This document shows positions 1 to 23,500 of a stretch of DNA of 64,000 nucleotides, piece after piece (positions within the stretch are counted from its first letter, which is position 1; the number at the start of each line of letters is the position of its first letter). A model generated the notes under the pieces. The model ran no database searches. It was not told the origin of the DNA and saw only the letters and a list, made by a program, of their open reading frames with translations. A program made the position numbers and the translations under genes. The stretch is from contig CM119371.1 in assembly GCA_051294905.1 (NCBI GenBank), forward strand, positions 20,338,001 through 20,402,000, in the 5' to 3' direction. The DNA comes from Botryllus schlosseri. Its lineage: Eukaryota.

Positions 1-1293
1 GAAGAATGTAAAGCCCGTGTGCTGGCAAATGCCGAGCGTTGTCGTGACCCTGTCGGTGGATTAGAAATTAAATTAGCGCATTTTGATCACATTCATTACG
101 ATACGGAAAATGGAGCTTTGAGATTTCCTGGGCCACCGCTGATGATCAAGGGTCACGGTAGGAGTGAAATGCGTGGCATACAGTCTTCCAAACGTACTAA
201 ATCTCGAAAGAAAAGGTTCTTGTTTTTTGCATTAATAATGGTTTTTTCGTCAATTTTTACATTAACTGCCGCATCAACATTACAGAGTGAGTTTAATGCT
301 AGGACGAAAGATCTTACTGACCAGTTGAACACTAGGTTTACATTGTTAGAGAGTGATCTTAAGGAAGTGGCCGACAAAGTTAACCAACTCGCAGCGGTAA
401 CGGTGTCCCAGGGTCAAAATCTAAATCAAGTAATCATAGGAATGTTAGAACATGAGCGAACGCGCGACGCCCAACTTGAGGCCATTATTGCCCAAGTTCA
501 TGAAAACAAGAATATGATAATAGCTCAAGCAGACTTGTATTTTTCTACTATTCAAACTGTGCACTCTATGACGATCGCAGAAGTGGCTGTAAATGATTTG
601 ATTATTTCAAAGTTACAAAATAGCACGGGAAAAGCTATTTTTGATTCAACCAAAGCTTATTTAGTGCGAATTAAAAATGGACTAATACATTTGAAAGAGC
701 ATGGCCAATTGATAACCGCGTATCAGTTGGATTATCGGAATTTTTCTAATCATCAAGGTCAAATTTTAAAGGCGGCGCGTGAAAAATTGAATGACACCAT
801 GGCAGAGACTGAATATAGGGTTAAGGTTTACCAACAAGGGGTGAATAGCACCTTAGTTTTGAACACTACCGAGTTTAGCCACGATAACATAACCTTCATT
901 TCCTTGAACGGCTCGATAGGAAAAGAACTATTCCAAGATATAGGATATGGCATAAAAACTGTAGCTGAGGGCACCGGCCATGTGATTAGTGAAATTTTGC
1001 AAGATACGGGAACTCTAATTAAGACAGGTGTCGATGGAGTTGGAGATATGATTGGTACCGGGCTAGGATCTATTTTTGGGGGATTAGGAAAATTTCTAAT
1101 TCCGATTGGCATAGTATTGGGTGCATTAATAATAATTTATTGTCTGATAAAATTCTCCCCAGGTTGTAAAAGTCGAAAAACTACGATAGCTGAAAGGAAT
1201 AATCATACTGAAATGGCTACTTTTGTCACAACCGTTGTACCACGCCGAAATATCGTTAAAAAAGTAGTGCGGCGATCTGAGTATAATGTATAA
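1..1293 (+). CDS. env: Envelope/fusion glycoprotein, class I-like (probably 5'-partial)
   Basis: Frame is open from base 1. Furin-type site RKKR (205-216) is followed by a hydrophobic segment FLFFALIMVFSSIFTLTAAS, long heptad-like helices (LTDQLNTRFTLLESDLKEVADKVNQL...), N-glycosylation sequons (NST, NFS, NDT, NTT, NIT, NGS), a Gly-rich membrane-proximal region, a TM helix FLIPIGIVLGALIIIYCLI and a basic cytoplasmic tail. Confidence 0.75.
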   Translation, partial: EECKARVLANAERCRDPVGGLEIKLAHFDHIHYDTENGALRFPGPPLMIKGHGRSEMRGIQSSKRTKSRKKRFLFFALIMVFSSIFTLTAASTLQSEFNARTKDLTDQLNTRFTLLESDLKEVADKVNQLAAVTVSQGQNLNQVIIGMLEHERTRDAQLEAIIAQVHENKNMIIAQADLYFSTIQTVHSMTIAEVAVNDLIISKLQNSTGKAIFDSTKAYLVRIKNGLIHLKEHGQLITAYQLDYRNFSNHQGQILKAAREKLNDTMAETEYRVKVYQQGVNSTLVLNTTEFSHDNITFISLNGSIGKELFQDIGYGIKTVAEGTGHVISEILQDTGTLIKTGVDGVGDMIGTGLGSIFGGLGKFLIPIGIVLGALIIIYCLIKFSPGCKSRKTTIAERNNHTEMATFVTTVVPRRNIVKKVVRRSEYNV

Positions 1294-1371: not shown

Positions 1372-3513
1372 ATGAAGCCAAGTGTCTGTCTTAATTTCGG
1401 GATGTGTTTCGTAACATGTGCCCTGTTCGCGCGGGGTGAAAAAGATAATTGGACATTGGCTGACTTGAAGATTCAACCAATCACGAGGCTGAATTACGAC
1501 CTATGGATAAATACTACGACGCGGTTGTCGGAACGAATAGCTCTGCAAGATTTGTTCCAATTGCCGAAGCTTGAGGGATCCTTGAATTCAACAAAATGGG
1601 AATCAAGACGATATGGTATGATTTCATCGAAAAATCGTACAATTAGCGAAAATCTCCAACCCCGTGGTAAATACTGGACCGATCCTGTAGCGTTAGAGCA
1701 ACAATGTCTGTGTGTTCGATCATTGGCTTTGGTTAGGCCGAGTTTGCAATACAGTAATCTATTCAAAAATGTCACCTATCATAGGAAACCACAATCCGAT
1801 TTAAGACATATGTTAGTTTGGGCGGAAACACCTGATTCATTAAGGCGGAATAATAATTTAAATGTATATAATGGCGTTATGACAATTTATAAATTTCTGC
1901 TCATTAAGTTACTACAGCGGCATTTGGTTGTTCAGGCCTCTTGTGAAAACACTGATGAGAATGATTTGGCTGGATCCACAGATTTCCCGATGAATATATT
2001 AAGAGAGTGTATACGAAGGCGTTACCGAGTAACGGTGTGTATATCTTGTGCTTTTTCCGGTTATCAGCAAATATTAGAACCGATCCCTAGAGGTTTCTTA
2101 ATTCAAGAATTTGACGATACCTTGGATAAGTTTTTATCTCGTGATACCACTGAGACAAATAACTTAGAGAGTCGATACCAATGGGCCGCGTCGGAGAATT
2201 ATTGGCCTTTGAAAGGAACCCGACCGATATTTGATGAAAATATTCGCTGGATTAAAGCGACGGTGAGACACACTGGGCGGGTTTATCGTGATGGTGACAT
2301 TAGGTTGCAATCTGGTAAGTTACCAGTCTATTCGTCGTTTCCGTCTATGCTACATGGGGACGGGTTCTGTAGAAATAGGACTCGGATAGTTGAGTGTGGA
2401 AATGTGTTCGTTGGAGTGAGGGCTAAAATCGCATTGCGTAACCATGTGAGATACGATCCGGCCCACAATAAGTCGGTATTCGCTGATATGAATGATGGGA
2501 TAATATTAGGTCGCCCTATAGAAGGCAAGGTTAAACGATCCATGGAAGTGAATAATACCTTTTTGATATTACCACCGGATCATTTGGGATTAACTTTTCA
2601 ACAATACTTGGACAATATGACTAATCAATTACTTGTTGCTATTCAACAAAATCTCGATCAATTAGCTGGACCAATCAGCAAAACCGGATTGCTAATCGAT
2701 AATCAGAGGGGAAAAAATGTTTCGAATCTACAGATACATTCTTATAGTGAAATAGTAAGTGAATATGAACGGCGATCCCAAGACATAGCGAGGTTGAATG
2801 ATTGTTTTATACAAAAAATGATATTAAAATTGTTGGGAAAAATGGATAAGAGGTTTGCAAGTTGGTATATTTCTGGAATGTGGTATGCAGCGTCATGGGA
2901 CAATGCGAACCTTATAGTCACACCGGTGGGTTATTATTCTCGCGATTTTGAACCAGCAACAATGTTAGAGCGAGTTATAAGAACTGGCGAAAAGTTGCCG
3001 GAATTGGGTGGTAATGGATCACGTGAAATGATACTAACTAGAACAACAGTTCGACCTACTATGAATTCTCAGGAGGCCACCAGAATAACTACAAGTATTG
3101 ACATTGGACTTCACGACCCTAGAACAACGGACATTTCTCTGGACACTGCAGAACCCGAGAACTCGCTGGAAACCGAAGTTGCCTTTCGGACTGACCTGGA
3201 TCCCAAAATAACATTAAAGCAGAGGTTGGAGAATTTATCGCGCGATGAACAAAATTATACGCGTAAAGGTTATAATGCACCGATATTGACCTTTAAAAAG
3301 ATTATGACATTGCTCGTCACTACAGAACCTGGAATAATTGCCGTAGTGGTAGGATTATTGGTGATATCGGGAATAATTATTGGCTATATTAATTACCGAT
3401 GCGTGAAAAAACAAGTAAAATACCGAATTGCCAAACGAAATAGAGATCATTGGATTACTATGATGCCAAGAAATGAGGATTTAGAGGATAATGATAATCC
3501 GTGGTACGACTAG
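1372..3513 (+). CDS. Second type I membrane glycoprotein (~713 aa), possibly class III fusogen-like (GP64/gB-like)
   Basis: First ATG at 1372 gives a signal-peptide-like MKPSVCLNFGMCFVTCALFARG. More than 10 N-x-S/T sequons, several Cys, C-terminal TM GIIAVVVGLLVISGIIIGYI and a basic tail. Segment RLNDCFIQKMILKLLGKMDKRF...NLIVTP loosely recalls the GP64/gB central-helix region (by eye). Confidence 0.7.
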   Translation: MKPSVCLNFGMCFVTCALFARGEKDNWTLADLKIQPITRLNYDLWINTTTRLSERIALQDLFQLPKLEGSLNSTKWESRRYGMISSKNRTISENLQPRGKYWTDPVALEQQCLCVRSLALVRPSLQYSNLFKNVTYHRKPQSDLRHMLVWAETPDSLRRNNNLNVYNGVMTIYKFLLIKLLQRHLVVQASCENTDENDLAGSTDFPMNILRECIRRRYRVTVCISCAFSGYQQILEPIPRGFLIQEFDDTLDKFLSRDTTETNNLESRYQWAASENYWPLKGTRPIFDENIRWIKATVRHTGRVYRDGDIRLQSGKLPVYSSFPSMLHGDGFCRNRTRIVECGNVFVGVRAKIALRNHVRYDPAHNKSVFADMNDGIILGRPIEGKVKRSMEVNNTFLILPPDHLGLTFQQYLDNMTNQLLVAIQQNLDQLAGPISKTGLLIDNQRGKNVSNLQIHSYSEIVSEYERRSQDIARLNDCFIQKMILKLLGKMDKRFASWYISGMWYAASWDNANLIVTPVGYYSRDFEPATMLERVIRTGEKLPELGGNGSREMILTRTTVRPTMNSQEATRITTSIDIGLHDPRTTDISLDTAEPENSLETEVAFRTDLDPKITLKQRLENLSRDEQNYTRKGYNAPILTFKKIMTLLVTTEPGIIAVVVGLLVISGIIIGYINYRCVKKQVKYRIAKRNRDHWITMMPRNEDLEDNDNPWYD

Positions 3514-4196: not shown

Positions 4197-4883
4197 ATGG
4201 AAGGAATGAATTTGGAAATGATGAATGTTTATAGGAATCTACATGGGAATTGCCTTGCGCAATGTGGCTGCCTGGGATATTGTCCTCAGTTTTTCTGTAC
4301 CGAAGCCAAATTAACGTCGGCGCAGATAACCTGTCAATGGCAAACAATATTAAATAGTCGAGCATACCTTCAGATAAAAAATAAGAGTACGAGAATGAAA
4401 GATTATCTTCACTATTTTATATCAAAAAATTCAGATTTCACGAAACCACTTTTTGGCACTGATTACAGAGTGGAACGATGGTCTAGGAAATATAATGTGG
4501 CGCATTTCGTGGGATGTGAACTAGATCCGTTTAAGAATACGGGACTTTCGGACGAAATGTGGGAGGAGATCTATTGTATTCCATATTTGGGCAATGATTT
4601 GTGGATTACACGCATAATTGGAATATGTGCGAAAATGTTCCATAAATGTTTTAGGGAGCTTCTGCGTAGCATTTTCCCTGCCATGCCAAATCCAGAAGAG
4701 GGAATTAAAGATTTTATAATTTGGGTTTTGTACCCGGAAGCGATAATATTTGGACTGTCTAGTAATGAGGAGGGTGTTTTGGAGGAGAAAAGCATGTTAA
4801 TTTCGGAAACACATTATTTGGCTTGTCGTGATAAGAAGGCATTTAGTCTGAGGAGTTACTGTGATCGCTTTACCGGATTGTAA
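4197..4883 (+). CDS. Accessory protein 1, PWWP3A/MUM1 C-terminal-domain-like
   Basis: 228-aa intact ORF. Motif IKDFIIWVLYPEAIIFGLS...SETHYL (PEAII at 4734) is shared with the next two ORFs. Confidence 0.65.
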   Translation: MEGMNLEMMNVYRNLHGNCLAQCGCLGYCPQFFCTEAKLTSAQITCQWQTILNSRAYLQIKNKSTRMKDYLHYFISKNSDFTKPLFGTDYRVERWSRKYNVAHFVGCELDPFKNTGLSDEMWEEIYCIPYLGNDLWITRIIGICAKMFHKCFRELLRSIFPAMPNPEEGIKDFIIWVLYPEAIIFGLSSNEEGVLEEKSMLISETHYLACRDKKAFSLRSYCDRFTGL

Positions 4884-5039: not shown

Positions 5040-5954
5040 ATGTGCGGCAATGGAATCTATTGTAATGAAGTCCACAGTACCAATTTTAGAAGAGAAAACG
5101 TGTTTTCAGTAATATGTGAGTGTGAAATGGTGGCAATCTTTATTGAAAGAAATACCACTGTAGATTGGGTAGCCACCATTTTGAGTCAAAACCAGCATTT
5201 GGGTATGAAGCATTTCAATAATCATCCAGGTCACCCCAATATTGACGCGTGGATACAGCGATATCGTAGAGAATATTTTCACTATTCAGACCAGCGGGAC
5301 CGTGTGTATACCGTTTTGGACGTAGCTTTGAGCTCCTATTTACGAAGTACCAATCAAGCTATGATCCCCAAAAGAAAGACAAAATTGATTCGCGGAGTTT
5401 TGGTCCCAGAGAAGGTTATATCGGCCATATCTGTCATAGACCGTGTTACATTGGCTAGCGCGGAATATAAATATTTGACATCGAACCTAGTCATTTTAGA
5501 AATTGCCTCCGAGCTTCTATGCGCCAATGATAATCACGCGGGTAGGAACTCGCAGGCCGAAATTGAGGGAGACGAAAGTAATGTATGGTCGGTAACTGAG
5601 GAGTCTATGGAAGCTACCACGACAGGAACAGCTGATGAGAGGGAACTTTATCTTCATCCAATAAAAAGGGAGGAATCGCCGTTAGTGGTCGGAGGCTCAG
5701 AATGTGAAGAGGACAACATGGATATCACAATTACACGCGTGGTGTCCCTTGCTCACCAACAGGAAGTCCGGGGGAAAAGGCGCGGATCTCGTCGAAGGCG
5801 ATTTTGGTGGAATCATGAACGGAATGTTGGACAACACCGTAGTCATGATCGATGTGCTCGGACCAGTCGATACGACGTCAGTCAGAACAGGTCGGAATTA
5901 GAGTTTGGGGAAGCGGGAAGTAGTAAATCGAGAATGGGATACTACCCTTATTGA
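5040..5954 (+). CDS. Accessory protein 2, PWWP3A/MUM1 C-terminal-domain-like, with acidic and Arg-rich (NLS-like) tail
   Basis: 304-aa ORF. YFHYSDQRDRVYTVL...KLIRGVLVPEKVISAISVIDRVTLASAEYKYL; tail has RGKRRGSRRRR. A pyrimidine tract plus CAG (cttccttaccag, ending 5037) lies just before the ATG. Confidence 0.7.
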   Translation: MCGNGIYCNEVHSTNFRRENVFSVICECEMVAIFIERNTTVDWVATILSQNQHLGMKHFNNHPGHPNIDAWIQRYRREYFHYSDQRDRVYTVLDVALSSYLRSTNQAMIPKRKTKLIRGVLVPEKVISAISVIDRVTLASAEYKYLTSNLVILEIASELLCANDNHAGRNSQAEIEGDESNVWSVTEESMEATTTGTADERELYLHPIKREESPLVVGGSECEEDNMDITITRVVSLAHQQEVRGKRRGSRRRRFWWNHERNVGQHRSHDRCARTSRYDVSQNRSELEFGEAGSSKSRMGYYPY

Positions 5955-6875: not shown

Positions 6876-7466
6876 ATGCTCACGTGTAAGATACATTTAC
6901 CAGTTAATGTTGTTAAAGCATGCGCCATGTGCAAAGCGTTGTATTGCGAGTTTTCACGAACTGTTCATGCGGCTTGGTCTCCGACTGAAGAAGAATTTAT
7001 GGAGCAGGCCAAGAAAGAAATAGAATTTTTGACATCATCAGCCGAACCGCTGGTACACTTATGCGAAGTCCTTACCAACCAACTCCATCCCAGAGTAATG
7101 TGCGTCCTTGGAGACTTATGGGAGATATATTTCGACGATTATGAAGGTTTTTCATTGAAATACGTCCCTGAATATTATTGTTTCCATGGGTTGAAAGACG
7201 AAATCGGCAAATTTCTTGCGCACGTGGTGGACTGGATGTGCATAATCGACCCAGAAATCCCGCAACTGTGGCATGGTGATGAACAATTAAAAATCAAAGT
7301 GATTTATGATCTACTGTTGCCAGAAGCTATCATATTTTGCCATTCAAAATGTATGGGAATATCATTGGCTGATGCGGAAAACCATTATCTTAGAGATGGA
7401 AAGAATCAGTTGATTGCGGGTGGATGGAAGACTGCGAAGGGTAAACTGAATGATCCAGCCAGGTGA
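6876..7466 (+). CDS. Accessory protein 3, PWWP3A/MUM1 C-terminal-domain-like
   Basis: 196-aa ORF. KIKVIYDLLLPEAIIFCHSKCMGISLADAENHYL (PEAII at 7320); N-terminal CxxC...C. Confidence 0.65.
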   Translation: MLTCKIHLPVNVVKACAMCKALYCEFSRTVHAAWSPTEEEFMEQAKKEIEFLTSSAEPLVHLCEVLTNQLHPRVMCVLGDLWEIYFDDYEGFSLKYVPEYYCFHGLKDEIGKFLAHVVDWMCIIDPEIPQLWHGDEQLKIKVIYDLLLPEAIIFCHSKCMGISLADAENHYLRDGKNQLIAGGWKTAKGKLNDPAR

Positions 7467-8252
7467 GCTACGGGTTATTCGATGAAAGACAAAAAAGAGA
7501 CTGAATTATTGTATTATGTTCGGCATCAGGCGTTGTCTCAACCCGAAATGATTGGACAATATTGTTGATGAGTGGGTGCTCGCATGAGCATATGGCGTGC
7601 TTTAACATTTTATGTAATCGATTTAATTAGATTGTCCGATGGAGAGTGCTGATAATAAGTTTGAATTATTGGAGTGGTATAGTTAGATTTTATGTATATC
7701 AAGGAATTTGTTAGAGAGTGCTTATGGGCGGAAATTTTCAATATTGCTTTTGAAATATGTGTTTGTATTATGTTCTTGGAGATATTCCGTATGCATATAT
7801 ATTTGCGTATTGATTTAAATGAGAGTCGCGGATTGTTTATATATAATGGTATAGGACGTAATGGTAGCGTAATTCATATATGTACTTATCTTATCAGGTT
7901 GAAACAGAGGTTATAATTAACGATAAAAGGTTATAACGTTTTGTATTGTGGGTAGAATGACCCTAGAAGGTTGAATCATTTAGATATTTAGTGTACGGGA
8001 TGCTAAATATAGATGTTTTGCTTTCTAGTCCCCAAAAAATGGTGAATAAAATCACGCCCAACCCTATTTAGGTTACATGATTGTGTAGATATGTGGAGTA
8101 ATTATTTCATTTTTTTTTGGATCAATGTATATTGAAAATTGTGTGATTTTGTGTGAATTATTTAGTATGCGTTGTAACTAGTCCACGCCCCAGCGACTAG
8201 AACCCCTACACTTGAGTGAGGCTGGACGGTGATAAAACCAAGACAAGTTGCT

Positions 8253-8260
8253 GGGGAGAA
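8253..8260 (+). promoter_or_regulatory. Polypurine tract (plus-strand priming site)
   Basis: GGGGAGAA followed by C and then TGT (8262), a typical gypsy PPT/LTR junction. Confidence 0.55.
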
Positions 8261-8261
8261 C

Positions 8262-8774
8262 TGTCATAAAATTAGATAAGTAACACCCTAGTATACTCGA
8301 GATTATACAAATACACAAAAACCTTGATCAGCCTTAAACGATAAAATGAAGATGTAACAAGCCCTTCACCAGAATGCTTTGGCCCTAGGTCAATTATGAA
8401 TACATGAAATAGACTATAGGATATGTGGAGATGCTATTGAAATATGGTCTTGATCGCATATGTGTTGAATTGCATGATTTTAGAAGACTAAGTAACAGTT
8501 GGATGCATTTTACGAATGATTGTTGCTATGGTAACATTGCTACTTGAATGTAAAGTCTAATATTGGAGTATTTGGTTGTATTAAGGTACCAAGGTCAAGT
8601 GCGTACAAATATGTTAGCTAAGACTGGACCCTAAGGTCATTGAAAGTTCAAGACACTTCGAAGGCTGCGCCACCTGCAACAGTGATTCACCAAAATTGGA
8701 TTACAAGCAAAAGAACCAGGCAAACACAATATCTTCCTACTAACAAGATTGGAGGCAAGATATTTCTACAAACA
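8262..8774 (+). repeat. Putative single LTR (~513 bp), TGT...ACA
   Basis: Starts TGTCATAAA directly after the PPT and ends TACAAACA two bases before the PBS. Inferred from boundary signals only, as there is no second copy in the window. Confidence 0.55.
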
Positions 8775-8776
8775 TT

Positions 8777-8786
8777 TGGAGGCACC
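8777..8786 (+). promoter_or_regulatory. Primer binding site, tRNA-Thr type
   Basis: CA-TT-TGGAGGCACC is complementary to the 3' end (...GGTGCCTCCA) of eukaryotic tRNA-Thr(AGT) as recalled. It lies ~240 bp upstream of gag. Confidence 0.7.
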
Positions 8787-8833
8787 CTGAGGAATTGTAT
8801 TTCAAGGCGCCTGGTAATCATTGTTCTTGCTGG

Positions 8834-8998
8834 ATGATTTCGTCTTCAGAGGCTACTGGACGGCCACGATCAAGCAGCCGGATCGCAATTTTTATTAGCG
8901 TTTGCAGTATAATAGCGTTCTCGGTCGCTTGCTACGTCATAAAGTCATTGGACCATGCGCAATTCATAATGACGGCGAATGTGTCAAATATTCAGTAA
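8834..8998 (+). CDS. Leader uORF, 54-aa putative single-pass membrane peptide
   Basis: ATG at 8834. Basic residues, then the hydrophobic stretch IAIFISVCSIIAFSVACYVI, then an NVS sequon. Lies between PBS and gag. Confidence 0.3.
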   Translation: MISSSEATGRPRSSSRIAIFISVCSIIAFSVACYVIKSLDHAQFIMTANVSNIQ

Positions 8999-9022
8999 AT
9001 AGGGGGTGATTCTAAAGCAATT

Positions 9023-11413
9023 ATGAGTTTTTTTTGGCAGAAAAAGAAAAAAAATGACGCTTCTGCACTACAAAAGAATATTGCATTGATGAAAAACACT
9101 CAGCAGCGACATCTCGCGACTCAAACTAGAAAAGACCATTTAGTATCGGAGGTTCAGGACCAAGCAAAACTTTTGAAGGAGGTAAAATCTATGCTACCTA
9201 AAACTGTTAAAGATTTGAAACAGGCTAGAAAAGATGTCAAACAGGCGGAAATTGATTTGAACGCGGTACAAAAGGCCACCGAAAAAGCCTGCACCAAGAT
9301 ATCCGCTGAAACGCTGGACCAGGTTTTGAGTAGACAATTTCAAGCGGGGGTGGATTTTGAAAAAACGGAGGGAGTGTCAAAAATACTTTCTATGCCTACA
9401 TTGGCGAACCCAAGACCGTCCGCTCCACCGCCGGATTATCGTGCAACTCAAACCATTCCGGTATTTACGAAGGCTTTGCTTCCAAGTTCTAGTGATTCCA
9501 CGCTACCAAAAAAAATTCTGAAGCAACCCGGGGCAGCGCCGACTATAACAAATCCTAGTGTTATGCAAATGTCATCATTTCCCGTGGGAGTGGCTGGATT
9601 AGATGTGATTCCAGACCACCATGTCATCAGAGGATCAATTATTGGACCACCGGATTCGGAAGGCGTGCCACGATTGCTAGCATCGCAACGTTCACGTTTA
9701 ATTGCGAAGCCGTTATTCACCCCACAAAACACACAGCGCCAAGGGCGGATTGTGGTGCCCCGGCCAGGGAAAAGAACCAGAGTTACCTGGTACGATGATG
9801 ATAAGGGGGACGAGGGTGATAATGAGGACGATGACGCAGAGTCTGATCTTATTGACCTGGATGACCATAGTAGTGATTCGGGTCAGAGTCATGTTGATGT
9901 ACCAAATACGAAGCCCATGACGATGCAAGAAATTTTAGCCATCATGAAATCGCCCGGAAGTATGCCTCTGTTGCGATTTATCGAGGATATACTTAGATGT
10001 GTACCACACGGCGATGGTGATACGATAGCGGACCGAATCTTGGCCAACGCTATACAGCATAAATTAATCATGGCAAAGAGATCGGATGAGGCGGAGCAAT
10101 TGGCAGATATACTTAGCGTTGACAATCCAAAGTGGCAAGACGCTTTGGAAATATTGTCATTGGCCAACCCAATTGAGACGTGTAATAAGGATGCGTTGAT
10201 TCGTGAATTTGCCGAGTCATTCAATTGGACAAAGACACCTATATTGGAAATTCATCGAGTTCTCAGAAAGATGGACCTGCCCCTCGATCAGATAGTAATG
10301 GGCGACCCAGATGGTATTAGACTCTTTCGAAATCTGAGGTCACTATTGCCCCCCACCCTGAGAACCCTGCTACAGGGCTATGAATTTTTGTCATGGCAAA
10401 AAATCGCCAAATTGTTGCAGGAATTTTGGAATAGTGAGAAAATGGATCGTCAAGCCGCGATAAAACCGTACGCAACTCCGGCATCTTATCCAGTGCATAA
10501 GCAAATACCGACAGCCGTTAATACACCGAATTCCGTGTCTTATCCGGTAGCCACGCCCACGCCAGTGACGATATATAATTGTCAAACTCCGAGAGATATG
10601 CCGTGCTGCCCTACTAGGAGCTCGGAAGGCGTGAGAAGTCAAACGCTGTATCAAGGAGCTGGGGTCGCTTACACGGTGGAACCCACACGGCGGAATCCTG
10701 AACGACAAGCAAAGAAGAATCGTTTTCAGCTGAATCGGAATCAGCCAACCTTGAGAGGTAGGACCGATGTGCCTAGCGATAAAAGAGACTCCACTCCAGC
10801 GGACAGTTATGAAGCAAGAAGAATAGCTCAAGAACAAGGTAGATCTTATAATTTTCTTGAGAACCCAAACGTCTTTGAAAAGCTTGGATTGTATACGCAT
10901 CCTTCTAATGGCCAGAAGTTAATGGTGTGTTACCTATGTAAAAGTATAGGGCATTCTGTCAGCCAATGTTTATGCAAAGTAATCCTCTGGATTAACCAAC
11001 TAGTACTTACTAAAGATGAGGAGGGTGAATGGATTGTCCGCCCTCGCTCGAAACCCCTTCCAAGCCCATTGTTTGAAGAAGTAAAATCTAAGTGGGAATC
11101 TTTCCTCCGAGGTGAAAATCCGGAGGGCAGAAAGCTAATGACAATCCAAGATTTAAACCAATATTTCGCTGATCAGGGGTCCCCCAGTTTGCAAGAGAGA
11201 GCGCGGTTATGCGAATTGTATTTTGACGAGCGCCCAAAACGACGTGATCCATTAAATTGGCAACATAGACCAATTTTTGAACCGCCAAATATCGAGGCGC
11301 CAATGGCTAGTGCTAATCCTGTGGTTTGTCGTCCAAATGTCGTCCAACGGCCCTTTCCTCATTGGTCGGATTCAGAATTGTTAACTGGGGTGAATTTGTC
11401 AAAAAACGGTTAG
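9023..11413 (+). CDS. gag: Gag-like polyprotein (796 aa)
   Basis: Basic N-terminus (MSFFWQKKKK), coiled-coil, PSAPPPDY late-domain motif (9416-9439), acidic linker, helical CA-like region, and zinc knuckle CYLCKSIGHSVSQC (10928-10969). Overlaps pol in the -1 frame. Confidence 0.85.
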   Translation: MSFFWQKKKKNDASALQKNIALMKNTQQRHLATQTRKDHLVSEVQDQAKLLKEVKSMLPKTVKDLKQARKDVKQAEIDLNAVQKATEKACTKISAETLDQVLSRQFQAGVDFEKTEGVSKILSMPTLANPRPSAPPPDYRATQTIPVFTKALLPSSSDSTLPKKILKQPGAAPTITNPSVMQMSSFPVGVAGLDVIPDHHVIRGSIIGPPDSEGVPRLLASQRSRLIAKPLFTPQNTQRQGRIVVPRPGKRTRVTWYDDDKGDEGDNEDDDAESDLIDLDDHSSDSGQSHVDVPNTKPMTMQEILAIMKSPGSMPLLRFIEDILRCVPHGDGDTIADRILANAIQHKLIMAKRSDEAEQLADILSVDNPKWQDALEILSLANPIETCNKDALIREFAESFNWTKTPILEIHRVLRKMDLPLDQIVMGDPDGIRLFRNLRSLLPPTLRTLLQGYEFLSWQKIAKLLQEFWNSEKMDRQAAIKPYATPASYPVHKQIPTAVNTPNSVSYPVATPTPVTIYNCQTPRDMPCCPTRSSEGVRSQTLYQGAGVAYTVEPTRRNPERQAKKNRFQLNRNQPTLRGRTDVPSDKRDSTPADSYEARRIAQEQGRSYNFLENPNVFEKLGLYTHPSNGQKLMVCYLCKSIGHSVSQCLCKVILWINQLVLTKDEEGEWIVRPRSKPLPSPLFEEVKSKWESFLRGENPEGRKLMTIQDLNQYFADQGSPSLQERARLCELYFDERPKRRDPLNWQHRPIFEPPNIEAPMASANPVVCRPNVVQRPFPHWSDSELLTGVNLSKNG

Positions 11414-14400
11414 CTACACTGGCTCATTTTGTGAACCAGTGTGCAGACGAACTATTACCACATAGAACCGCGAGAATAATAAATAATTTGTCATTGCCGT
11501 TATTTAGTATGTTCGGGGAAATTAAAGATTCTGATGATTGTAATTTCGCAAAGCTTTTTGGGGGTGAATTGATGTACCTAGTCGATATGAACACTAATGT
11601 AAATTTTTTAGCAGACACAGGAAGCGTGCCAAATTTGATGATGTCGTCGACGGCGAAATTGGTTTATCCCTATAGTTGGCGAAGGCGGTGTTCATTGCGT
11701 ATGAATTTACAAGGTATAGGTGGGTCGTCACAGGTTGAGTCATTAATATATATAGAAATTGATGGGGTTTCAATTCCTTTTGCGTGTGGTAATGTCCCGT
11801 TAAATATTATCGGATATCATTGGATAGACAAGGTTATATCGCTGCCTTCAATTGATGCGGTGTTAAAAAGCCCGTCAATTGCAAGTCACGAGCTGGCTCA
11901 GTCCGAAATAGGTGTTCCGTGTTCATTGTCGACATATGCCGTGATAGAATATGATGACGAAGGGCGGGAAATAAAAACTTTGGCCAAACAAAGAAATAAC
12001 GTGAAGAACAGCAATCGCGAAGCTGTTTCGGATGTTAGGTCGTTAGAAATTGGAAAGTCGCACCCGTGCCAATTTAATAGTGACAGCGCTGTTAGTATAT
12101 GCGCTGAAAATATTGGTGAAATGCAGGCACGAAATTTGGTCACATTCGGTGTAAAATGTGAGTGCGACGGGTTGAAAAGTTTTAGGGCGCAAGATCTTTT
12201 CAATCCAATAGGCCCCGAAGTGGATGTTGACGTAAGCGTACCGAAGCATCAAAAATCTCATAGTGGAGAGTTATTTGCCTCGTTTCTAACGACAAATAAA
12301 AGGCCAAAATATTTCCCGCGAAAAGTATTCGATGGTCCAATAACGGAATATGTGTTGCAAAATGAATCGGATATAGAGGTTAGATTGGAATTGGAAGAAC
12401 TTCGTAAGCAATCCGTATTGCTGTCAAAAACGCCATTCCAACAGCCCGATCTAAATGACGACGCCAATGCTATTATAGACGAAAAAACATGGAGAGCGGT
12501 GTATGAGCCGTTCGCCGCGGAATTAGAAGATCTCGTCGGGCATCTACAGGGAAAGCAGGCCATGATGTATCCATGTAAAATAGAACTAAAAGATGAGTCG
12601 ACTACTCCTTTTGTGTCTTCGCCTTATAATTTAAGGGGTAAAGAACAATCGACTGCTTTGGAAGAAGCAATTGACAAATTTTTGCATCTTGGTATTGCAG
12701 AAGTTGGGTTTGCGGATTGGATGTTGCCTATATTTGTGGTTCCGCAAAAGGTGAACAGCGCCCAAATGAAATCTGGGGGCTGGACCCAGAAATGGCGTGT
12801 AGTGCAGAATTTACAGCCGTTAAACTCGAAAATCCGAATAATGGAAATAAATATGCCTTTAGTAAGCGATATGAAGCAATTGGCTCAAGGTTGCGAAGTC
12901 CTCTCATTGATCGATTTACAGAAGGCTTATTTTCATATTGACGTGGCCGAAGAATCAAGACATTTCCTGGGTATTGCGGTAAAAGGGCATTATATAAGAT
13001 ATCGGAAATTACCCATGGGGCTAATATTTAGCGGGGCTTTATTTACTATTAACATTTTAGAGGGGGTTATACAACCAGTTCTTAAAAAATATAAGGCTTA
13101 TATGGAATCCCAAGGTAGAAAGGACGAATTACTTTCAAACCCAATTGAGGCTTATATTGACGATATCTTTTTATGTACAAAAAATGTGAATGATCATTTA
13201 TTCCTTCTTAAAATTGTATTCGAGCAACTTGCACTAATGAAATTGACAGTCAGTGTACATAAGTGTTATTTTGGTAAACGAAAAATCGAACTGCTGGGTT
13301 CTACAATAACCGGCCGCAATATTGAAATCCAACCTCAACGCTTGTTTGCGTTGAAAACTATGGCACCCCCAAGAAATATTTACGAATTGCGTGGGTGGAT
13401 AGGATCTATACGGTATATTTCTGATCACGTACCAAAACTAAGCGTAAAACTAGCGAACTTTGATTCGCTCACGGGCAATGTGCCTGCGACGAGGGCAAAA
13501 TTAACGCCCGTATTTTGGACAAGGCAACTTTTAGAAGATTTTAAAATAATCCAGCATAGTCTTGATGATCCTCAGATTTTGTTTCATTTTGATCCCAAAT
13601 TGCCATTGTTCGTGGAAACTGATGCTTCAGACGTTGGGTTTGGGGCAGTAATGTTCCAAACAGAACTGGGAGCCACACACCCTTTCGACACGGTGTATCC
13701 TCTTGCGTATTATAGCCATAAGTGGGTCACTTCTACCGCGCGGGCGTATAACGCTTGTACTAAAGAATTGAAGGCACTTCGTGATTCGGTTGAAAAATGG
13801 CAAACTACCTTACGATGTACTCCTTTTACAATAATCACAGATAACGCTGGAGTATATGGACTACTTCAGAGGATGACCAGCCGGGGAAAGCATCCTAGCC
13901 CTGATCTGTTATTACAACGATGGTTGAGTTATTTGTCCGGTTTTCAGATAAAACGAGTTATTAATTTGAAAACAGATGAAGTGTTCACATCGGATGGTCT
14001 GTCTCGATCTTATTGGATGCAGTTCGCGGCGGACGACCAAGACCCAGGCGTGTGGACGGTGGTCGCTGATAATCAAGGGGGCGATACAACTGGGGGTGAA
14101 GTGAGTTCAAAAAAAATTGCAGAAAAAATATGTCGACGGGTACTACAACATTGTAGGCATGAGTCTTGTAAATATGTGCAAAATGGCTACCACCCATGGA
14201 AACAAGTTCAATTAATATTGCTTGAAAGTCTCGACATCAATTTTCCGATTGACGAATTGAAAAAGGTGTTATTAAATTGCAGACGTGCAATTTTAAACGA
14301 GACGGGGGTAGCAGCGGCACATGGGCATACTCTTGGACAGACGCCTAAATATGATGAATATGAAGGTAACGACGCTTTATTCCACATAACTAAACAAGAA

Positions 14401-14625
14401 AATTTGAAGTCCATAATACAGGGCGAATTAAAATCAATGAATCGCCGCTATATACATTTCACAAATAGGCGTGCTGAGATTAAAGATAGACATCGACAGA
14501 AGGTGGTGAGCGCACAACCTCAAGTATTGCGAAGATTGGGATATCATTTTTGGCAATCACCGAACCCGGAAGTTATTTTGTGTAAAGAATCGATCCCAGG
14601 GGTATTATTAAGAGTGGAGGAATGA
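11326..14625 (+). CDS. pol: Pol polyprotein: aspartic protease, reverse transcriptase, RNase H; no integrase DDE core recognised
   Basis: FLADTGS (DTG 11614-11622); RT motifs WRVVQNLQPLN, LIDLQKAYFHI, LPMGL, YIDD (13153-13164), LLG; RNase H VETDASDVGFGAV, KELKAL, IITDN, SDGLSR. About 200 aa follow without a D,D(35)E pattern. Confidence 0.92.
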   Translation: MSSKCRPTALSSLVGFRIVNWGEFVKKRLATLAHFVNQCADELLPHRTARIINNLSLPLFSMFGEIKDSDDCNFAKLFGGELMYLVDMNTNVNFLADTGSVPNLMMSSTAKLVYPYSWRRRCSLRMNLQGIGGSSQVESLIYIEIDGVSIPFACGNVPLNIIGYHWIDKVISLPSIDAVLKSPSIASHELAQSEIGVPCSLSTYAVIEYDDEGREIKTLAKQRNNVKNSNREAVSDVRSLEIGKSHPCQFNSDSAVSICAENIGEMQARNLVTFGVKCECDGLKSFRAQDLFNPIGPEVDVDVSVPKHQKSHSGELFASFLTTNKRPKYFPRKVFDGPITEYVLQNESDIEVRLELEELRKQSVLLSKTPFQQPDLNDDANAIIDEKTWRAVYEPFAAELEDLVGHLQGKQAMMYPCKIELKDESTTPFVSSPYNLRGKEQSTALEEAIDKFLHLGIAEVGFADWMLPIFVVPQKVNSAQMKSGGWTQKWRVVQNLQPLNSKIRIMEINMPLVSDMKQLAQGCEVLSLIDLQKAYFHIDVAEESRHFLGIAVKGHYIRYRKLPMGLIFSGALFTINILEGVIQPVLKKYKAYMESQGRKDELLSNPIEAYIDDIFLCTKNVNDHLFLLKIVFEQLALMKLTVSVHKCYFGKRKIELLGSTITGRNIEIQPQRLFALKTMAPPRNIYELRGWIGSIRYISDHVPKLSVKLANFDSLTGNVPATRAKLTPVFWTRQLLEDFKIIQHSLDDPQILFHFDPKLPLFVETDASDVGFGAVMFQTELGATHPFDTVYPLAYYSHKWVTSTARAYNACTKELKALRDSVEKWQTTLRCTPFTIITDNAGVYGLLQRMTSRGKHPSPDLLLQRWLSYLSGFQIKRVINLKTDEVFTSDGLSRSYWMQFAADDQDPGVWTVVADNQGGDTTGGEVSSKKIAEKICRRVLQHCRHESCKYVQNGYHPWKQVQLILLESLDINFPIDELKKVLLNCRRAILNETGVAAAHGHTLGQTPKYDEYEGNDALFHITKQENLKSIIQGELKSMNRRYIHFTNRRAEIKDRHRQKVVSAQPQVLRRLGYHFWQSPNPEVILCKESIPGVLLRVEE
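11401..11444 (+). promoter_or_regulatory. -1 programmed ribosomal frameshift signal (gag-pol)
   Basis: Slippery heptamer A AAA AAC (11401-11407) is in the correct gag phase, with a single codon (GGT) between it and the gag TAG. A hairpin follows: ACACTGG (11416-11422) pairs with CCAGTGT (11436-11442), with extra GC/GC and TCA/TGA pairs. pol is in the -1 frame. Confidence 0.8.
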
Positions 14626-17600
14626 AATAAGGTGATATTTACTTAGTAGAAAATGGCCTGAGAATTAATAAAGTAAATAATCGCAAGATGAAGCCTTGGT
14701 TGTTGTCATTATATACCAGGCTACAGTTTAATTGGTTTAAAGGCGGGTGTATAATATAGTTATCGGTGAGCCACATGTTTCAGATTTGAAGAATGAAAAT
14801 TGATGTAATCCTAAAAAGCTAATATTCGGTGGATCGTTTCTCTGAAATAGCGGGAAGATTGCCGGAAAGAATACCCATAAGGCCTGTGATTAACAGTCGG
14901 AAATATGAGTCATATGAGGCTTCGGTCATACGATCATTTGTATGGTATTGTCGTCATGGGCTAGAGTGTGCACCATGACAACAGATATGCGGGCGGAAAA
15001 TGCGCATGCTCCTATGTCCTTGGCCTTGCATTTCTACGAGTTACGTTGCTTCGTGCATCAGCCCCACACATTGCATAAGTTATTATTGTTTCCATCCAGA
15101 AACTTGCTTGTTGTATGTATATTTCTCAGATATAAAGGTAATATTGATGTAACACTTATTATCGATATCTCTCACTGCAAATTGCAAGTACGATGAAAGT
15201 TGCGAAAAGTTATCACAAAAGTGGTATCGGATATTATCTTGTTTCAACTGATACCAACGTTGGGAATACATTTTCACAAAATGGACCTATTACTATGTTG
15301 AATGTCATCAGGATAATGGGATATATTCCGTTATGATCATGAACTTGCTGGAAAAATCAGGATAGCTAAAGGTTGTACCATAGGGAAGCCCCGCTGTATG
15401 TTGCTGATTGTAAATGTTTCGCACAATTACTGGGGTGGCATGAAAATCAGTCACCAAACAAATACGAAAGGAGGAATGTGACTTTAGAAAACTGCAACGT
15501 GGAAGATTCTGGAGATCTTATCTCATAATATGGTGACATTCAGCTGTGGATTCACAGACTGCATCTCAAGGCAGGGAGCAAATGATGCACTGCGAATGAT
15601 ATTGGGCGCCTTTAATTTTGTGAACTACAGACACTGCTCAACGAAAATGCCTTGCTAGATCACTAGGTTACTCTCCAGTCTCCAATTACAGTGCAGATGG
15701 CTGTTTTTTATGCACTTGGCAATCATTTTTGCATGTTACCCGTCATATTACAACTTTGCAAGGTGTCAGCTGTCTGTGTTTTGGTTTGTAGTCAATAGTG
15801 TCTTCTGGTTAGAGCTATCGAAAGATATCGGGGGCAAAACTTAGAACACTCCGGAAAACTCCGGATAAATATCTGCTGTAAACTCCGAGCCCACTCCGAG
15901 TATCACAAAATTGGCAAAACTCCGCTCCGGAAACACTCCGACTCCGCTCCGATGCTCATCACTGGTGCTTGAAGGGTCAGGTCTTTATAAGAACCCTCCA
16001 GCACTCCTATGCAAAATACAGCATATTTTATGTGATTGAAAAATGCTTGATCGCAGGAGTTTTTTTTAGAGTATGGCACAAATGACCCATGAGGTCCCAG
16101 TTTGTCGAAGATGTGCGAATCCACATGTTTGTTTTGATGTTTTTGCCTGATGGTTTGGAAAAAAAAGCTTCAAAGCTCTCAAGGAGAATAGTCATATTAG
16201 AGCTCGCTGACTTATGATAGGCTGCTCCAACTTGTGCTTAGTTATTTTCTTTCAATTTTCCATTTTCTGTGTTTCGAGTAAATGAGAGGAGCAGAGAAAG
16301 TCAAGATGCCGTGTGTTCGGCTTTTTAGCGCAATCCATCTTGAAAGTTCATAACAGTTCAATAACCATGTAGCAGCGGTTGTTAAACTTTTTAAACAGCG
16401 ACAAAATTCTGAGGCTTAGTGACATCACGCGACCCAAGCCTTTCACATCAGAAATAATGCATTTTTATCATTAGCATGCTACCATTTTACGGGCATGTGA
16501 GACGCAGAGAACCCGCATACACTATTTATAAGAAATACAGCTCTACGAAACATGTCTGATACACGCGATTTCAAATTGGAGAGATTTACACGCCTCTGTG
16601 CGACGCATTTGTACTACTGTCTAGTCAGATTGCAAGGACGGGATTATTCGGTGCTGACTGACTGCCAAGCAGCGACGGTAATTGTAGGCCGAGGTTTTGT
16701 TACTGCTGATCTTTCTGCCACCGCACTTTCCCAGCAGTAGGTTGGCCAAACCTTCACATCTTAATGTGTCCCGACGACCTCGACCTCAAAAGAAATTAGT
16801 CTCATTGGCCCGCACCCGCTCGTTGTACACCCATACACTGAAGAATCGCAGAGGTCTTAGACGGTGTTTTCTAGAGAAATCAGTTGGACAGTCGTGAATT
16901 CAAACTAATTTATGTAACGCAAATGTTGGGACATTTTCATGGTCAAGCCATATTTTCTGCATGTCTCGCATATTGGCTATCGTTCCCTCCACATTTAATT
17001 TTTCAAAAACTACCACAAGTCGTTACGACACCTTCCTATCTTTTCATTGTCTCGCAGTTTTATGGTGATTTGAAATGATGATAATATTATTAAACTGATT
17101 CAGTGACCTTGAGTATAAAAAAACTAACCACGTGCAATCGCGCCCAGCGCGAAGGAATTTGTCGCAACAAATTTAACGAATATTATATACATCATAAAGG
17201 GGCACTGCACTCTAAAGTCTAAATACGATGTGGTCTCAAATTAAACATGAAATCGGGAAAATGTTTTTGTCCGAGGCCATTTTCTTGGGAAAGCCACCGT
17301 GATGGAGAGGTAGCTAAATGAAAATTCAAACTATCCTCATTCCTCGCTATTTGAATTAATAGTCATCAATAGTGGCGCGGCTGCGAGTCTACGGCTGCTT
17401 AACCCCTGCTTAATCTCCACTTGCACTTGCTCGACGCGGCCACCATATTCTATTCACTTCATTTCTTTAAGTCAGTGGTTTTCAACGTTTTTGTCTTAGC
17501 AGAACCGTTTTGGACCGTCATGGACCCCCGCGGACCCCAAAAGGTTTAGTTCAATTTTAGCTCTATCACCGTGCAACCGTCGTCGTCTGTCCTGAAATGT

Positions 17601-19015: not shown

Positions 19016-22000
19016 AGTAGTGAGGGTGGATCAAATATACGCAGGCCAATCAGAGAGCGCCACGTCATCCTAATTGCCACGCCCATTTTCACACCCGAAG
19101 GGTATATTCATCTGCTACGTCATCTGTGCCACATCATCAAGCGCCACGCCTATAGTGCCACATCATCAATCCATTGCTATATCATCACTGCATTGATTGC
19201 CGCATCTTGATACTTTTCTCAGATATTCTATTTTGTGTATTTAGGACTAATGTCATCCGTCCATATTTTTAGACTTGATTTTATCTGTACAAGTTACGGT
19301 TTCTGCAGTGTCCACATTTTACGACTTATGATTTCCACGTCAAAACTTACCTTGGCTAGAATCGACGGCATGATTTTTGTGATAAGGACCTAGGTAACAT
19401 TCAGAGTCTGCAACGATTGTTTGGATATACATTATAGCAATACCGCACCAAACTATAGGCGGTTATATTACTCTATTGGTCAGAGATAACTCATCCGTCC
19501 ACATTTTTAAACTTGATTTTATGTATACAAGTTACGGTCTCTGCAACCGAACTTCAACGTAACGATTTTTCAGTAAGCAGTTATGTTTCCATGCTACTTT
19601 TACTTCTATTTAACGGGTTTTCATAGCGATTTTGAGTGCAGGCAGATAGCGGTTTCGATTTCCGAGGTCTCCACATTTTAAGCCTTATTATCAGTTCGCA
19701 GTACAACCGCTACCCGTATAATGTTTGCATGTCGAGTATAAGGGTATTTAACTCAGCACTAAAATGCCAACGGACTAGCCGCAGGGCCCGGTTCTCGTCG
19801 CTATAATTAAACGAACACCTTCGCCGCAGGTACGCGATCCCCGACGTTATAATGATAGGGCCAAATTAGCCGCATGAAAGCGAGTCTAATGAATATAACG
19901 ACAGACACCAAGTTAGTTGAAAAGTAAAACTAATCGTGACCGATGCAAGACGGATTGAAACAGCGCTTTCGCTCGATTCTTGTAGTGACCACATTTCATA
20001 CGATTCAGTCCTTTTCATGTCACTAGAATAAGGGTGATTAAACCGACAGTGAAACGCCGCCGGCATCTTATAACGTAATAATGTAAGCTGCGTCGGATGC
20101 TGCTATAATGTTAGGAGCGAATATAGTAGAAAGTCCACGTCTACGCATACTACCGTAGTAGAACGCAATTCACGCAAAAGTCGATATTGCTTTGTGATGA
20201 TTTTGATGTTGTTCCATACCGATTGGGAAGATAGGACTCCTAATTCCTTAACTAACTACATAATCTTTAGTAACGTAGTCAGAAGCATAACGGAATTTAC
20301 GCAAAATCGGTATTGCTCTGCGATAATTTTTACCACTATGTTTTGATAATAACTTGCTTCCGAGAAATAGATAACATTCATTATACGTTAGATGATACTT
20401 TTCCTTTATATTCTATTATGTGTATTTAGGGCTAATGCGACATCACTATGTTGGCGACAGGCCTGATTTGAACACACTAATTTTGCAAATTAAACTTATC
20501 ACCCACCACGAACACTCAGTGAAGAGCATACCCTGGAGCACCCTCATAAATGCTCTACAATTCGTGACGTATAATATATACTGAGCATATAATAAGCTGA
20601 CAAAACTGATACTTGAGTACTCCGAAATGTTCCATTGTCATAATGTCCTACACCTGTGAACCAATCTTCAAGTTGCGCATTCAATGTTTAGCTCGGTAAT
20701 TCCGTTATTAAAGTTGAGTATGCATAGGTACGTGCTACGCTCCCGCAAAAGTCGGTATGGAACTGCGTTAGTTTAAAATTTGTTCAATCATGAAATGCGT
20801 AACAAAATTTGACATGGTGCATTGTCATAATAATGTCTTACAACTGCGTACCGAGTTTCAAGGTGGGGAGTCGAATATTAACATGGTAATTCCGCTATTA
20901 AAGTTGACTATGTATCGTGCTACGCTACGGAAAAAGAGATTTAGCCAAAATTCTGTATCGAACTGCTTTGGTTTTAAAGGTGTTACATCATGAAATGTCT
21001 GACGAAATTTGGTATGGTGCATTGTTATTATGTCCTACAACTGTGTACTAACGTTCAAGGTGAGAATTTAATGTTTAGCATACTAATTCTGTTATTGAAA
21101 TTGACTATGTATGGGTATATGCTATGTTCACGAAAATCAGATATGCGTAAAAGTCGGCATTCGACTGCGATAGTTTCAAAGGTGTTCCATCATTAGATGT
21201 GTGATGAAATTTAGCATGGTGCATTGCCATAAGGCTCTACAACTACGTATCAAGTTTAGAGTTGGTATTCAATGTTAAGCATGGTAATTCCGTTATTAAA
21301 GTTGGCTATGTATGGATACGTGCAATACGCTCCCGCAAAACAGATGTATGCAAAAAGTCGATGTAAAGCCGCGTTAGTGTTAAAGTTGTTCCATCATGAA
21401 ATGTGTGATGGGATTTGGTATGGTGCATTTTTATAATGTCCTATAACCGCGTACCAACTTTCAAGGTGGGAATTCAATGTTTAACACGGTAATTCTGCTA
21501 TTGAAATTGACTATGTATAGGTATATGCTATGTTCACGCAAAACAGATATGCGTAAAAGTCGGTATTCGACTGCGTTAGTTTTAAAGGTGTTCCTTGATT
21601 AGATGTGTGATGAAATTTAGCATGGTGCAACAAAAGTCTGTATCGAACTGCTTTAGTTTTAAAGGTGTTACATCATGAAATGTCTGACGAAATTTGGTAT
21701 GGTGCATTGTTATTATGTCCTACAACTGTGTACTAACGTTCAATGTGAGAATTTAATGTCTAGCATACTAATTCTGTTATTGAAATTGACTATGTATTGG
21801 TATATGCTATGTTCACGAAAATCAAATATGCGTAAAAGTCGGTATTCGACTGCGATAGTTTCAAAGGTGTTCCATCATTAGATGTGTGATGAAATTTAGC
21901 ATGGTGCATTGCCATAAGGCTCTAACTACGTATCAAGTTTCGAGTTGGGATTCAATGTTAAGCATGCTAATTCCGGTTTTAAAGTTGGCTATGTATGGGT

Positions 22001-22763
22001 ACGTGCTATACGCTCGCGTAAAACAGATGTACGCAAAAAGTCGATGTAGAGCCGCGTTTAGTTTTAAAGTTGTTCCATCATGAAATGTGTGATGGGATTT
22101 GGTATGGTGCATTGTTAAAACGACCTATAACCGCGTACCAACTTTCACGTTGGGAATTCTATGTTTAACACGGTCATTCTGCTATTAAAATTGACTATGT
22201 ATAGATATATGCTATGTTCACGCAAAACAGATATGCGCAAAAGTCGGTATTCGACTGCGTTAGTTTTAAAGGTGTTCCATCATTAGATGTGTGATGAAAT
22301 TTAGCATGGTGCATTGCCCTAATGTCCTACAACTACGTATCAAGTTTAGAGTTGGGATTCGATGTTAAGCATGGTAGTTCCGTTATTAGAGTTGACTATG
22401 TATATATGTACACGCTACCGAAAACAGATTTAGGCAAAAGTTGCTATGGAACTGCGTTAGTTTTAAAGTTGTTCCATCATGAAATGTGTGATGAAATTTG
22501 GTATGCTGCATAATCACAATGTTCTACAACTACGTACCAAGTTTCAAGGTGAGGAGTCACATATTAGCATGGTAATTCTGTTATTAAAGCTGACTATGTA
22601 TATGTACACGCTACCGAAAACAGATTTAGGCAAAAGTTACTACAGAACTGCGTTAGTTTTAAAGTTGTTCCATCATGAAATGTGTGATGAAATTTGGTAT
22701 GCTGCATAATCACAATGCCCTGGAGCTCATTTAGATACGTTTTTAAATGTAGTTACACATTCT
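19016..22763 (+). repeat. Left terminal inverted arm (~3.75 kb)
   Basis: Reverse complement of 25208-28079, near-identical. Mirror ORFs are identical (19866-20066 vs 27029-27229; 20790-21196 vs 25899-26305). It is longer because of extra tandem units. Confidence 0.95.
20630..22730 (+). repeat. Diverged ~200-bp tandem repeat array inside the left arm
   Basis: Recurring core CATCATGAAATGTGTGATGAAATTTGGTATGGTGCATTG near 20787, 20987, 21190, 21393, 21672, 21874, 22076, 22278, 22475 and 22672. Includes a higher-order ~685-bp duplication. Confidence 0.9.
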
Positions 22764-22949
22764 TGAATACTAATTAAAAAATAAAAAATAAAGAGCGAAA
22801 AATTACATTTTATCCCGGGACGTAACAAGAAAAATCGTATGAATTTGTAAACTACTTATTCGGTAAACTACTCTTTACTTCACAAAACAAAGTTACAAAA
22901 GTAAGCAGATTTATATGAAAACCCGTTAATTAGAAGTAAAAGTAATAAC

Positions 22950-23500
22950 AATGCATCATACCACATTTGATCACAATTTCATGATACAATACCTTTAAAA
23001 CTAACGCAGTTCTCTACACACTTTTGCGTAAATCTGTGTTTCGCTAGCGTAGCACGTACCTATACATAGTAAGCTTCAATAACGGAATTACCATGCTAAT
23101 AATCAAATCCTCACCCTGAAACTTGGTACGCGGTTATAGGACATTATGAAAATACAACATACCAAAATTTCGTCAGACATTTCATGATGTAACACCTTTA
23201 AAACCAACGCAGTTCTATGCCGACTTTTGGCTAAATCTGTTATCCATAGCGCAGCACGTACCTATACATAGTCACCTTTAAAACGGAATTACCGTGTTAA
23301 TAATCGGCTCCTCACCTTGAAACTCGGTACGCAGTTGTAATACATTATGACAATGTACCATGTAAAATTTTGTTACGCATTTCATGATTGAACAACTTGA
23401 AAACTAACGCAGTTCTATACCGACATTTGCGTGAAACTGTTTTGCGGGAGCTTAGCACATACCTATGCGTAGTCAACTTTAATGACGGAATTACAGATGT
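22950..23500 (-). repeat. About three further units of the ~200-bp repeat, in reverse orientation, in the spacer
   Basis: Reverse-complement cores (ATACCAAA..TCAGACATTTCATGAT) near 22960, 23160 and 23360. Confidence 0.8.

Follow-up and report, generated by a model that had tools for sequence, protein, structure and literature searches.

A gag/pol/env-like element of Botryllus schlosseri with a single internal LTR, no integrase in pol and a likely IS1016/Merlin-type right end

The present analysis of a 64,000-nt stretch of Botryllus schlosseri DNA (the window) points to an integrase-less element that encodes gag, pol and env-like proteins and carries only one LTR, located internally. We propose, with moderate confidence, that this element copies itself as a 1-LTR circle and is inserted by a transposase of the Merlin/IS1595 type. 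A more precise version of this proposal, which we regard as tentative, is that of an enveloped reverse-transcribing (RT) virus of animals, whose permuted 1-LTR provirus would rely on a Merlin/IS1595 transposase, acting at its joined inverted ends, for both insertion and release and whose R repeat would be the host spliced leader. Temperate phages, inserted and released at attP, offer an analogue for the use of joined ends.

The LTR module and the genes on its two sides

A polypurine tract, a TG...CA segment and a tRNA-type primer-binding site are present at 8253-8786, exactly at the coordinates given by the original prediction. The polypurine tract (GGGGAGAA, 8253-8260, plus strand), which is read from the sequence and is predicted to prime the plus strand, is separated by a C at 8261 from the TGT (8262-8264) that opens the segment. 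At the right edge, ACA (8772-8774) is followed by a 2-nt spacer (TT) and then by the primer-binding site (TGGAGGCACC, 8777-8786, plus strand), which starts with TGG two nucleotides past the LTR, presumably corresponds to the 3′ end of a eukaryotic tRNA-Thr and ends 237 nt before gag (ATG at 9023). Based on these motifs, on read depth and on the RNA profile, 8262-8774 (plus strand) was considered as a single internal LTR of 513 nt, with a putative U3 at 8262-8561 and a putative R-U5 at 8562-8774. The predicted order of genes around this LTR, with 3′ genes to the left and 5′ genes to the right, was also recovered: ORFs for glycoproteins and accessory proteins lie upstream and gag-pol lies downstream, all on the plus strand.

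The bare motifs (polypurine tract, TG...CA and TGG) are weak evidence, since shuffled sequences frequently reproduce them. When the intergenic region (1556 nt) was shuffled 5000 times under a Markov model, 365 of the shuffled sequences contained the strict pattern (a GGGG-purine tract followed by TG and, 200-1500 nt further on, CA-N(1-3)-TGG) and 2687 the same pair of motifs with a lax tract. Within the actual intergenic region, a GGGG-type tract followed by TG occurs only once, at 8253-8260, and the 513-nt segment has a single occurrence in the window (blastn, self-match only). The primer-binding site is less expected by chance: given about 50 possible tRNA 3′ ends, 10-nt matches located after CA are expected roughly 0.0025 times. 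No tRNA gene was found within the window, and a literature search on the primer-site motif returned unrelated papers only. Rfam gave nothing real over 7400-9100 (three matches, all with E values of at least 1.8), and the predicted RNA folding of the leader region and of the region joining U5 to the primer site was no better than that of shuffles (z scores of 0.05, 0.42 and -0.70). AATAAA and ATTAAA are absent from the LTR, and one AATAAA located after pol, at 14667, could halt read-through; both observations count against the circle model. The TG...CA ends are a feature of integrase users and may have been inherited by this integrase-less element from an integrase-using ancestor.

The leftmost ORF (1..1293, plus strand), cut by the left edge of the window, translates into an env-like type I membrane protein with a cleavage-like RKKR motif followed by a hydrophobic stretch and with a C-terminal membrane segment. 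It gave no meaningful match in Pfam or in the PDB, and its sequence features suggest a role in fusion. The next ORF (1372..3513, plus strand) encodes a second predicted membrane glycoprotein with a signal-like start and a C-terminal membrane segment, and matches no Pfam family. Three accessory ORFs, identified from their translations, follow on the same strand (4197-4883, 5040-5954 and 6876-7466), two of which match PF20886 (E = 6.8e-9 and 5.2e-6).

To the right of the LTR, gag (9023..11413, plus strand) translates into a protein with a capsid-like helical region and a CCHC knuckle. An A AAA AAC slippery heptamer lies at 11401, just ahead of the gag stop, and a relative, L001, also has this heptamer before its own gag stop. 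The best matches of the gag core model (mean pLDDT of 76) are mostly retroviral or Ty3-type capsids (Z scores of 5-6.5), which is only suggestive of a retroviral/Ty3-like fold of the modelled capsid; Foldseek found no match for this capsid at E ≤ 0.001. One relative of this gag is named from Styela clava. The pol ORF (11317..14625, plus strand), in the -1 frame, carries a protease (DTG), an RT (YIDD), an RNase H and a Tpt1/KptA domain, according to motifs and to Pfam matches (PF00078, PF17919, PF17917 and PF01885). The RNase H is followed by Tpt1 and then by the stop, with no integrase. The absence of integrase noted in the original prediction was therefore corroborated for the window pol, both by Pfam and by tblastn. 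None was seen after pol or elsewhere in the window either. Moreover, Pfam scans of eight pol relatives, of which two are partial, found no integrase family in any of them, and a tblastn search for integrase remnants in the window with 18 integrase-bearing C-termini gave a best E value of 0.16.

The association of RT, RNase H and Tpt1 is conserved among relatives that are only 33-39% identical. In a quick, midpoint-rooted tree built without named references, from which four of 37 integrase-bearing rows were dropped because of their short RT cover, the seven RTs with Tpt1 cluster together, separately from the 33 integrase-bearing ones (SH-aLRT of 98-100). The best PDB match of the RT-RNase H region is 8r0s ("Enzymatic polyprotein"; 147.6 bits compared to 126.9 for the Ty3 RT), which we take to be the RT of cauliflower mosaic virus; the ESM Atlas returned generic RT clusters only. 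Searches for related DNA found no locus in viral contigs or genome contigs and six loci in metagenome contigs. Only one of these, L001 from a marine metagenome, is a close relative; it starts inside gag, and its gag (1-2215) is split across two frames. One related pol (P0002 / P0055) has an Exo_endo_phos domain after Tpt1. Another, P0040, belongs to a cluster that comprises 215 sequences from long ENA contigs, and this lineage has therefore been amplified in one or more other data sets.

Copies of the LTR and the spliced leader that it contains

Reads from four of the 24 runs were mapped: two DNA runs, X1 (which may be the sample used for the assembly) and X5, and two RNA runs, X21 (single-cell 3′-tag) and X23 (bulk). 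Copies with two terminal LTRs would give a depth over the LTR equal to the sum of the depths of the left and right flanks. In X5, the depth is 9.3 at 8201 and 11.9 at 8800. Nine positions are listed within the LTR, six of which have depths of 7.8-13, and there is a fall to 0-2 at 8424-8518. The LTR depth is therefore close to that of each flank and not to their sum, which argues for one LTR per copy. The X1 coverage of the LTR is uneven: compared to 112.7 at 8201, it reaches 97-170 at 8345-8490, 563 at 8316 and 340-540 at 8518-8725 (the right half of the LTR being deeper than most of the left half), and it is only 20 at 8800, just past the LTR. Because of this unevenness, summed depths are noisy and additional partial copies may exist.

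Depth rises abruptly across the LTR and the sequence directly adjoining it. Diverged copies in the two DNA runs span all 30 bins, with the LTR present together with both flanks, and the X1 interior depth is 30-60 in most bins compared to 13.5 for one flank contig. At the LTR end, four X1 contigs depart from the reference with the sequence CA-TA-TGGA; a variant family thus keeps the start of the primer site (CA-NN-TGGA). Varied flanks piled at either LTR edge were not found among the 24 loose ends listed (299 others), and no listed contig extends 31 letters to each side of an LTR edge; for comparison with these flanks, the end of a host repeat at 15964 has 14 contigs, with an agreement of 0.45. 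This loose-end test is weak, since other insertions would also be expected at 15065 and none is among those listed. A second increase in depth, at 11551-12650, amounts to about five times the interior depth in both DNA runs, and the variant copies of this region carry frameshifting indels. This suggests a non-coding derivative family that possibly also keeps the LTR module.

The LTR contains a copy of the host spliced-leader exon at 8562-8585 (plus strand). It is identical at 24 of 24 positions to the "Chordata 1" consensus given in Table 1 of PMC3795323, the match excluding the first G of this consensus, and a 24-nt match of this kind would arise by chance within 513 nt with a probability of about 5e-11. 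Furthermore, the template-switch oligo is joined at 8562 in 239 X23 reads and 20 X21 reads, which are indistinguishable from host mRNAs and do not show the start of the element. On the basis of this identity and of these oligo-joined reads, 8562-8585 is a copy of the chordate spliced leader, an exon that heads many capped mRNAs. The X23 reads depart into other RNAs at 8592-8598, and the identical leader is also found joined to an AG, at about 15129, that acts as acceptor within the host repeat flanking the element. The GT directly after the leader copy (8586-8587, plus strand) is a possible splice donor. Acceptor-like AGs precede all five ATGs checked, a feature that is too common to count.

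The leader copy probably marks the R repeat, which would start at 8562. In X21, the LTR bin has 22.2 sense reads compared to 0.34 antisense, and the sense 3′-tag reads concentrate in the left half of the LTR, with a peak of 72 at 8424-8431 and only 2 at 8614. In the neighbouring host RNA, whose poly(A) is at 15768, the peak of reads lies about 155 nt upstream of the poly(A). Calibrated with this offset, the 3′ end of the LTR RNA would be located near 8580-8600, and R would thus be little more than the leader. These reads carry variants and therefore derive from other copies of the element. That an LTR contains a copy of the leader is a new observation, and such a copy would be one way for an LTR element to coexist with trans-splicing in its host. 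The leader could also be the head of a small SINE-like insert that is unrelated to R, an explanation that is compatible with all the other models discussed here and is in line with the recurrence of the first seven nucleotides of the leader at 8748 and with the greater X1 depth to its right. We consider it unlikely because none of the ten joints listed in X1 or X5 skips the segment and because this segment has neither an A-tail nor a duplication of its left flank. Moreover, the X5 depth is equal on both sides of the leader segment, no look-alike window was found, and the probable 3′ end of the RNA coincides with the leader.

The right end of the element and its proposed replication

One X5 contig joins the reference at 15066 and has other letters before it. 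Since this empty site starts at 15066, the element ends exactly at 15065. The right end (15045..15065), delimited by this empty site and by its sequence, starts with GGGGCTG when read inward. According to the available part of PMC12561309, the inverted repeat of ISApl4 (IS1016 group) also begins with GGGGCTG, this element generates 8-bp duplications and its circle was demonstrated by inverse PCR. The ends of Merlin elements start with GG and are associated with 8-9 bp duplications (PMC8101967, in part), and MTnSag1, from the IS1595 family, likewise forms a circle (PMC5704250, in part). The end at 15065 is likely, from its sequence, the start of an inverted repeat of the IS1016/Merlin type. The right end fits the 5′-GG terminal repeat of Merlin/IS1595 elements, and the left end lies beyond the window. 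By the 8-9 bp rule of these elements, 15066..15073 is a presumed 8-bp target duplication. No DDE_Tnp_IS1595 transposase was found within the window.

The layout is that of the permuted 1-LTR circle of the original prediction. The end at 15065 is exact and its GGGGCTG start is IS1016-like, and a random opening of the circle is therefore rejected. The predicted breakpoint at about 15 kb is a precise end. Similarly, the target duplication that had been predicted to be absent is, with terminal repeats, to be expected from a transposon-type end.

The element is inserted in a high-copy host repeat (15066-15964) that is transcribed on the plus strand and has its poly(A) at 15768. Elsewhere in the window, the 19016-28079 region is bounded by inverted arms of 2360 nt that are 100% complementary and contain subrepeats of about 200 nt; it may be a foldback-like element or an assembly artefact. 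A stop-to-stop frame located between these arms (24096-24728) matches Bcl-2 (E = 1.9e-21). A 41-bp minisatellite was also detected at 51648-51935, with related units at 50261-50371.

In the integrated form, the LTR could terminate the transcripts of the left block and start those of gag-pol. It could not yield a genome-length RNA; the ends must therefore join, from which we infer a circle. Replication would thus begin with the joining of both ends of the element. Transcription would then start at the leader copy in the LTR, run through gag-pol and the joined ends, cross the predicted block of transposase, env and accessory genes and end in the same LTR. The result would be an R-to-R RNA, whose 3′ end near the leader is suggested by the reads and whose 5′ start is predicted. 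Whether this RNA is transcribed directly or trans-spliced at the final AG, the leader copy would likely make its 5′ end identical to the LTR, so that strand transfer would still work. The GT after the leader could serve as a donor for the env and accessory mRNAs. Gag-Pol, produced by -1 frameshifting, would package the RNA in putative particles, and its copying by the RT would be primed by a tRNA at the primer site and by the polypurine tract. Finally, the transposase would insert the circular product at the junction of the ends, with an 8-bp duplication. Such a joined-end junction was not found among the 24 loose ends listed (299 others).

Other explanations can be proposed for the same arrangement. 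The element could be only a cut-and-paste DNA transposon that has captured the retroviral block as cargo and uses the LTR as a terminator for the left genes and as a promoter for gag-pol. This would agree with the transposon-type end and its empty site, with the lack of any junction RNA seen, with the AATAAA after pol and with the precedent of Teratorn, a virus carried by a transposase (PMC5601938, in part). However, the primer site and the polypurine tract are intact, as are the frameshift site and the motifs of RT and RNase H. Moreover, the RT-RNase H-Tpt1 association is maintained despite the low identity of the relatives, and the deeper variant copies retain the LTR with both flanks; we thus regard this explanation as quite unlikely. 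An element that never excises appears improbable. Its end-to-end transcript would be primed internally, the RT would jump between the two ends, from left to right, and the transposase would insert the resulting circle, which accounts for a gain of copies without loss of the donor while using the same primer site and polypurine tract. Nevertheless, the sense 3′-tag reads suggest that the RNA ends inside the LTR, the mid-LTR leader is most simply explained as the fossil of an RNA 5′ end at this place, and the homology available for the jump is at most 8 bp.

Two ordinary proviruses in tandem that share one LTR, the right one being truncated, had also been envisaged in the original prediction and are now very improbable. 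Integrase users typically have TG...CA ends and a spacer of 2 nt, the left side lies beyond the window and the X1 depth over the LTR is uneven, but the right end is a sharp IS-type end with an empty site, the LTR depth is close to that of each flank rather than to their sum, and pol and its relatives are devoid of integrase. A one-off accident, in which a 1-LTR circle broken at random was captured by DNA repair, would fit the gene order and the absence of integrase but is hardly credible given that the breakpoint is a GGGGCTG-type end and that the diverged copies of two DNA runs span all 30 bins and carry the LTR with both flanks.

Comparison with known systems

The definition of LTR elements and retroviruses rests on a pair of terminal LTRs that are processed by the element's own integrase. 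If the element replicates as a circle inserted by a Merlin/IS1595-type transposase, as we propose, reverse transcription, which depends on the internal LTR, appears uncoupled from integration, which depends on transposon ends. If true, this would be a new combination of polymerase and integrase and possibly an intermediate between integrating retroviruses and integrase-less pararetroviruses that are transcribed from a circle. It would also account for LTR finders classing the family as devoid of LTRs.

The element shares with the env-carrying Ty3/gypsy elements (Metaviridae, errantiviruses and Tor from Oikopleura; PMC4402516, in part) the LTR, the polypurine tract, the tRNA site, a gag with a capsid-like fold and a CCHC knuckle, the protease-RT-RNase H order, the -1 frameshift and env-like genes. 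The gene set of Metaviridae (gag capsid/nucleocapsid, protease, RT and RNase H) is present, the capsid fold being suggestive only (Z up to 6.5). The element differs from Metaviridae by a single LTR placed internally, where Metaviridae have two terminal LTRs flanked by a short target duplication, a right end that is not an LTR and is of transposon type, the position of Tpt1 in place of the integrase, its permuted genes and an RT located on its own branch (in the quick tree without named references).

Caulimoviridae have no integrase, prime reverse transcription from a tRNA and polypurine tracts and produce a terminally redundant RNA from a circle; they are non-enveloped, infect plants and encode a plant movement protein. 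Like them, the element encodes protease, RT and RNase H without integrase, the synthesis of a redundant RNA from a circle being only predicted here. In contrast to them, it has an animal host, membrane glycoproteins, a Gag-Pol frameshift, a TG...CA LTR and a predicted programmed insertion at defined ends. Its assignment to Caulimoviridae, a family listed as an RT group in PMC5718144 (in part), is ruled out by the two predicted membrane proteins, the chordate leader and the gag relative from Styela clava. The element also resembles, as an RT element without retroviral integrase, the DIRS-type elements. In elements of this type, a circular intermediate is probably inserted by means of a borrowed enzyme, a tyrosine recombinase. 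Unlike them, the present element has a protease, a tRNA site, a polypurine tract, env-like genes and an end of the DDE-transposon type, and no tyrosine recombinase was detected by Pfam in the seven element ORFs scanned.

Kuafuorterviruses, which have terminal LTRs, an integrase and IADD, VADD or LADD motifs in their RT (PMC11673190, in part), were rejected as a counterpart, since the element has YIDD, no integrase and an internal LTR. For Cer1, the available part of PMC3315495 describes the trans-splicing of a subgenomic RNA only. Further comparison was made with ta-TRIM (PMC4558846) and with PMC3691228 and PMC3074122, all in part. In the literature covered, whose scope excluded most subscription journals, Repbase and supplements, neither an RT element with Merlin/IS1595 ends nor a leader copy inside an LTR is described.

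The GG end is shared with Merlin and with the IS1016 group of the IS1595 family, whose bacterial members circularise (PMC8101967, PMC12561309 and PMC5704250, each in part), but the element is at least 15 kb long and carries a full reverse-transcription module. Finally, Teratorn, which associates piggyBac and a herpesvirus (PMC5601938), also consists of a virus genome within transposon ends, with a proposed excision before replication. Teratorn belongs to the DNA viruses and encodes replication genes of its own, whereas the element described here is an RT element.
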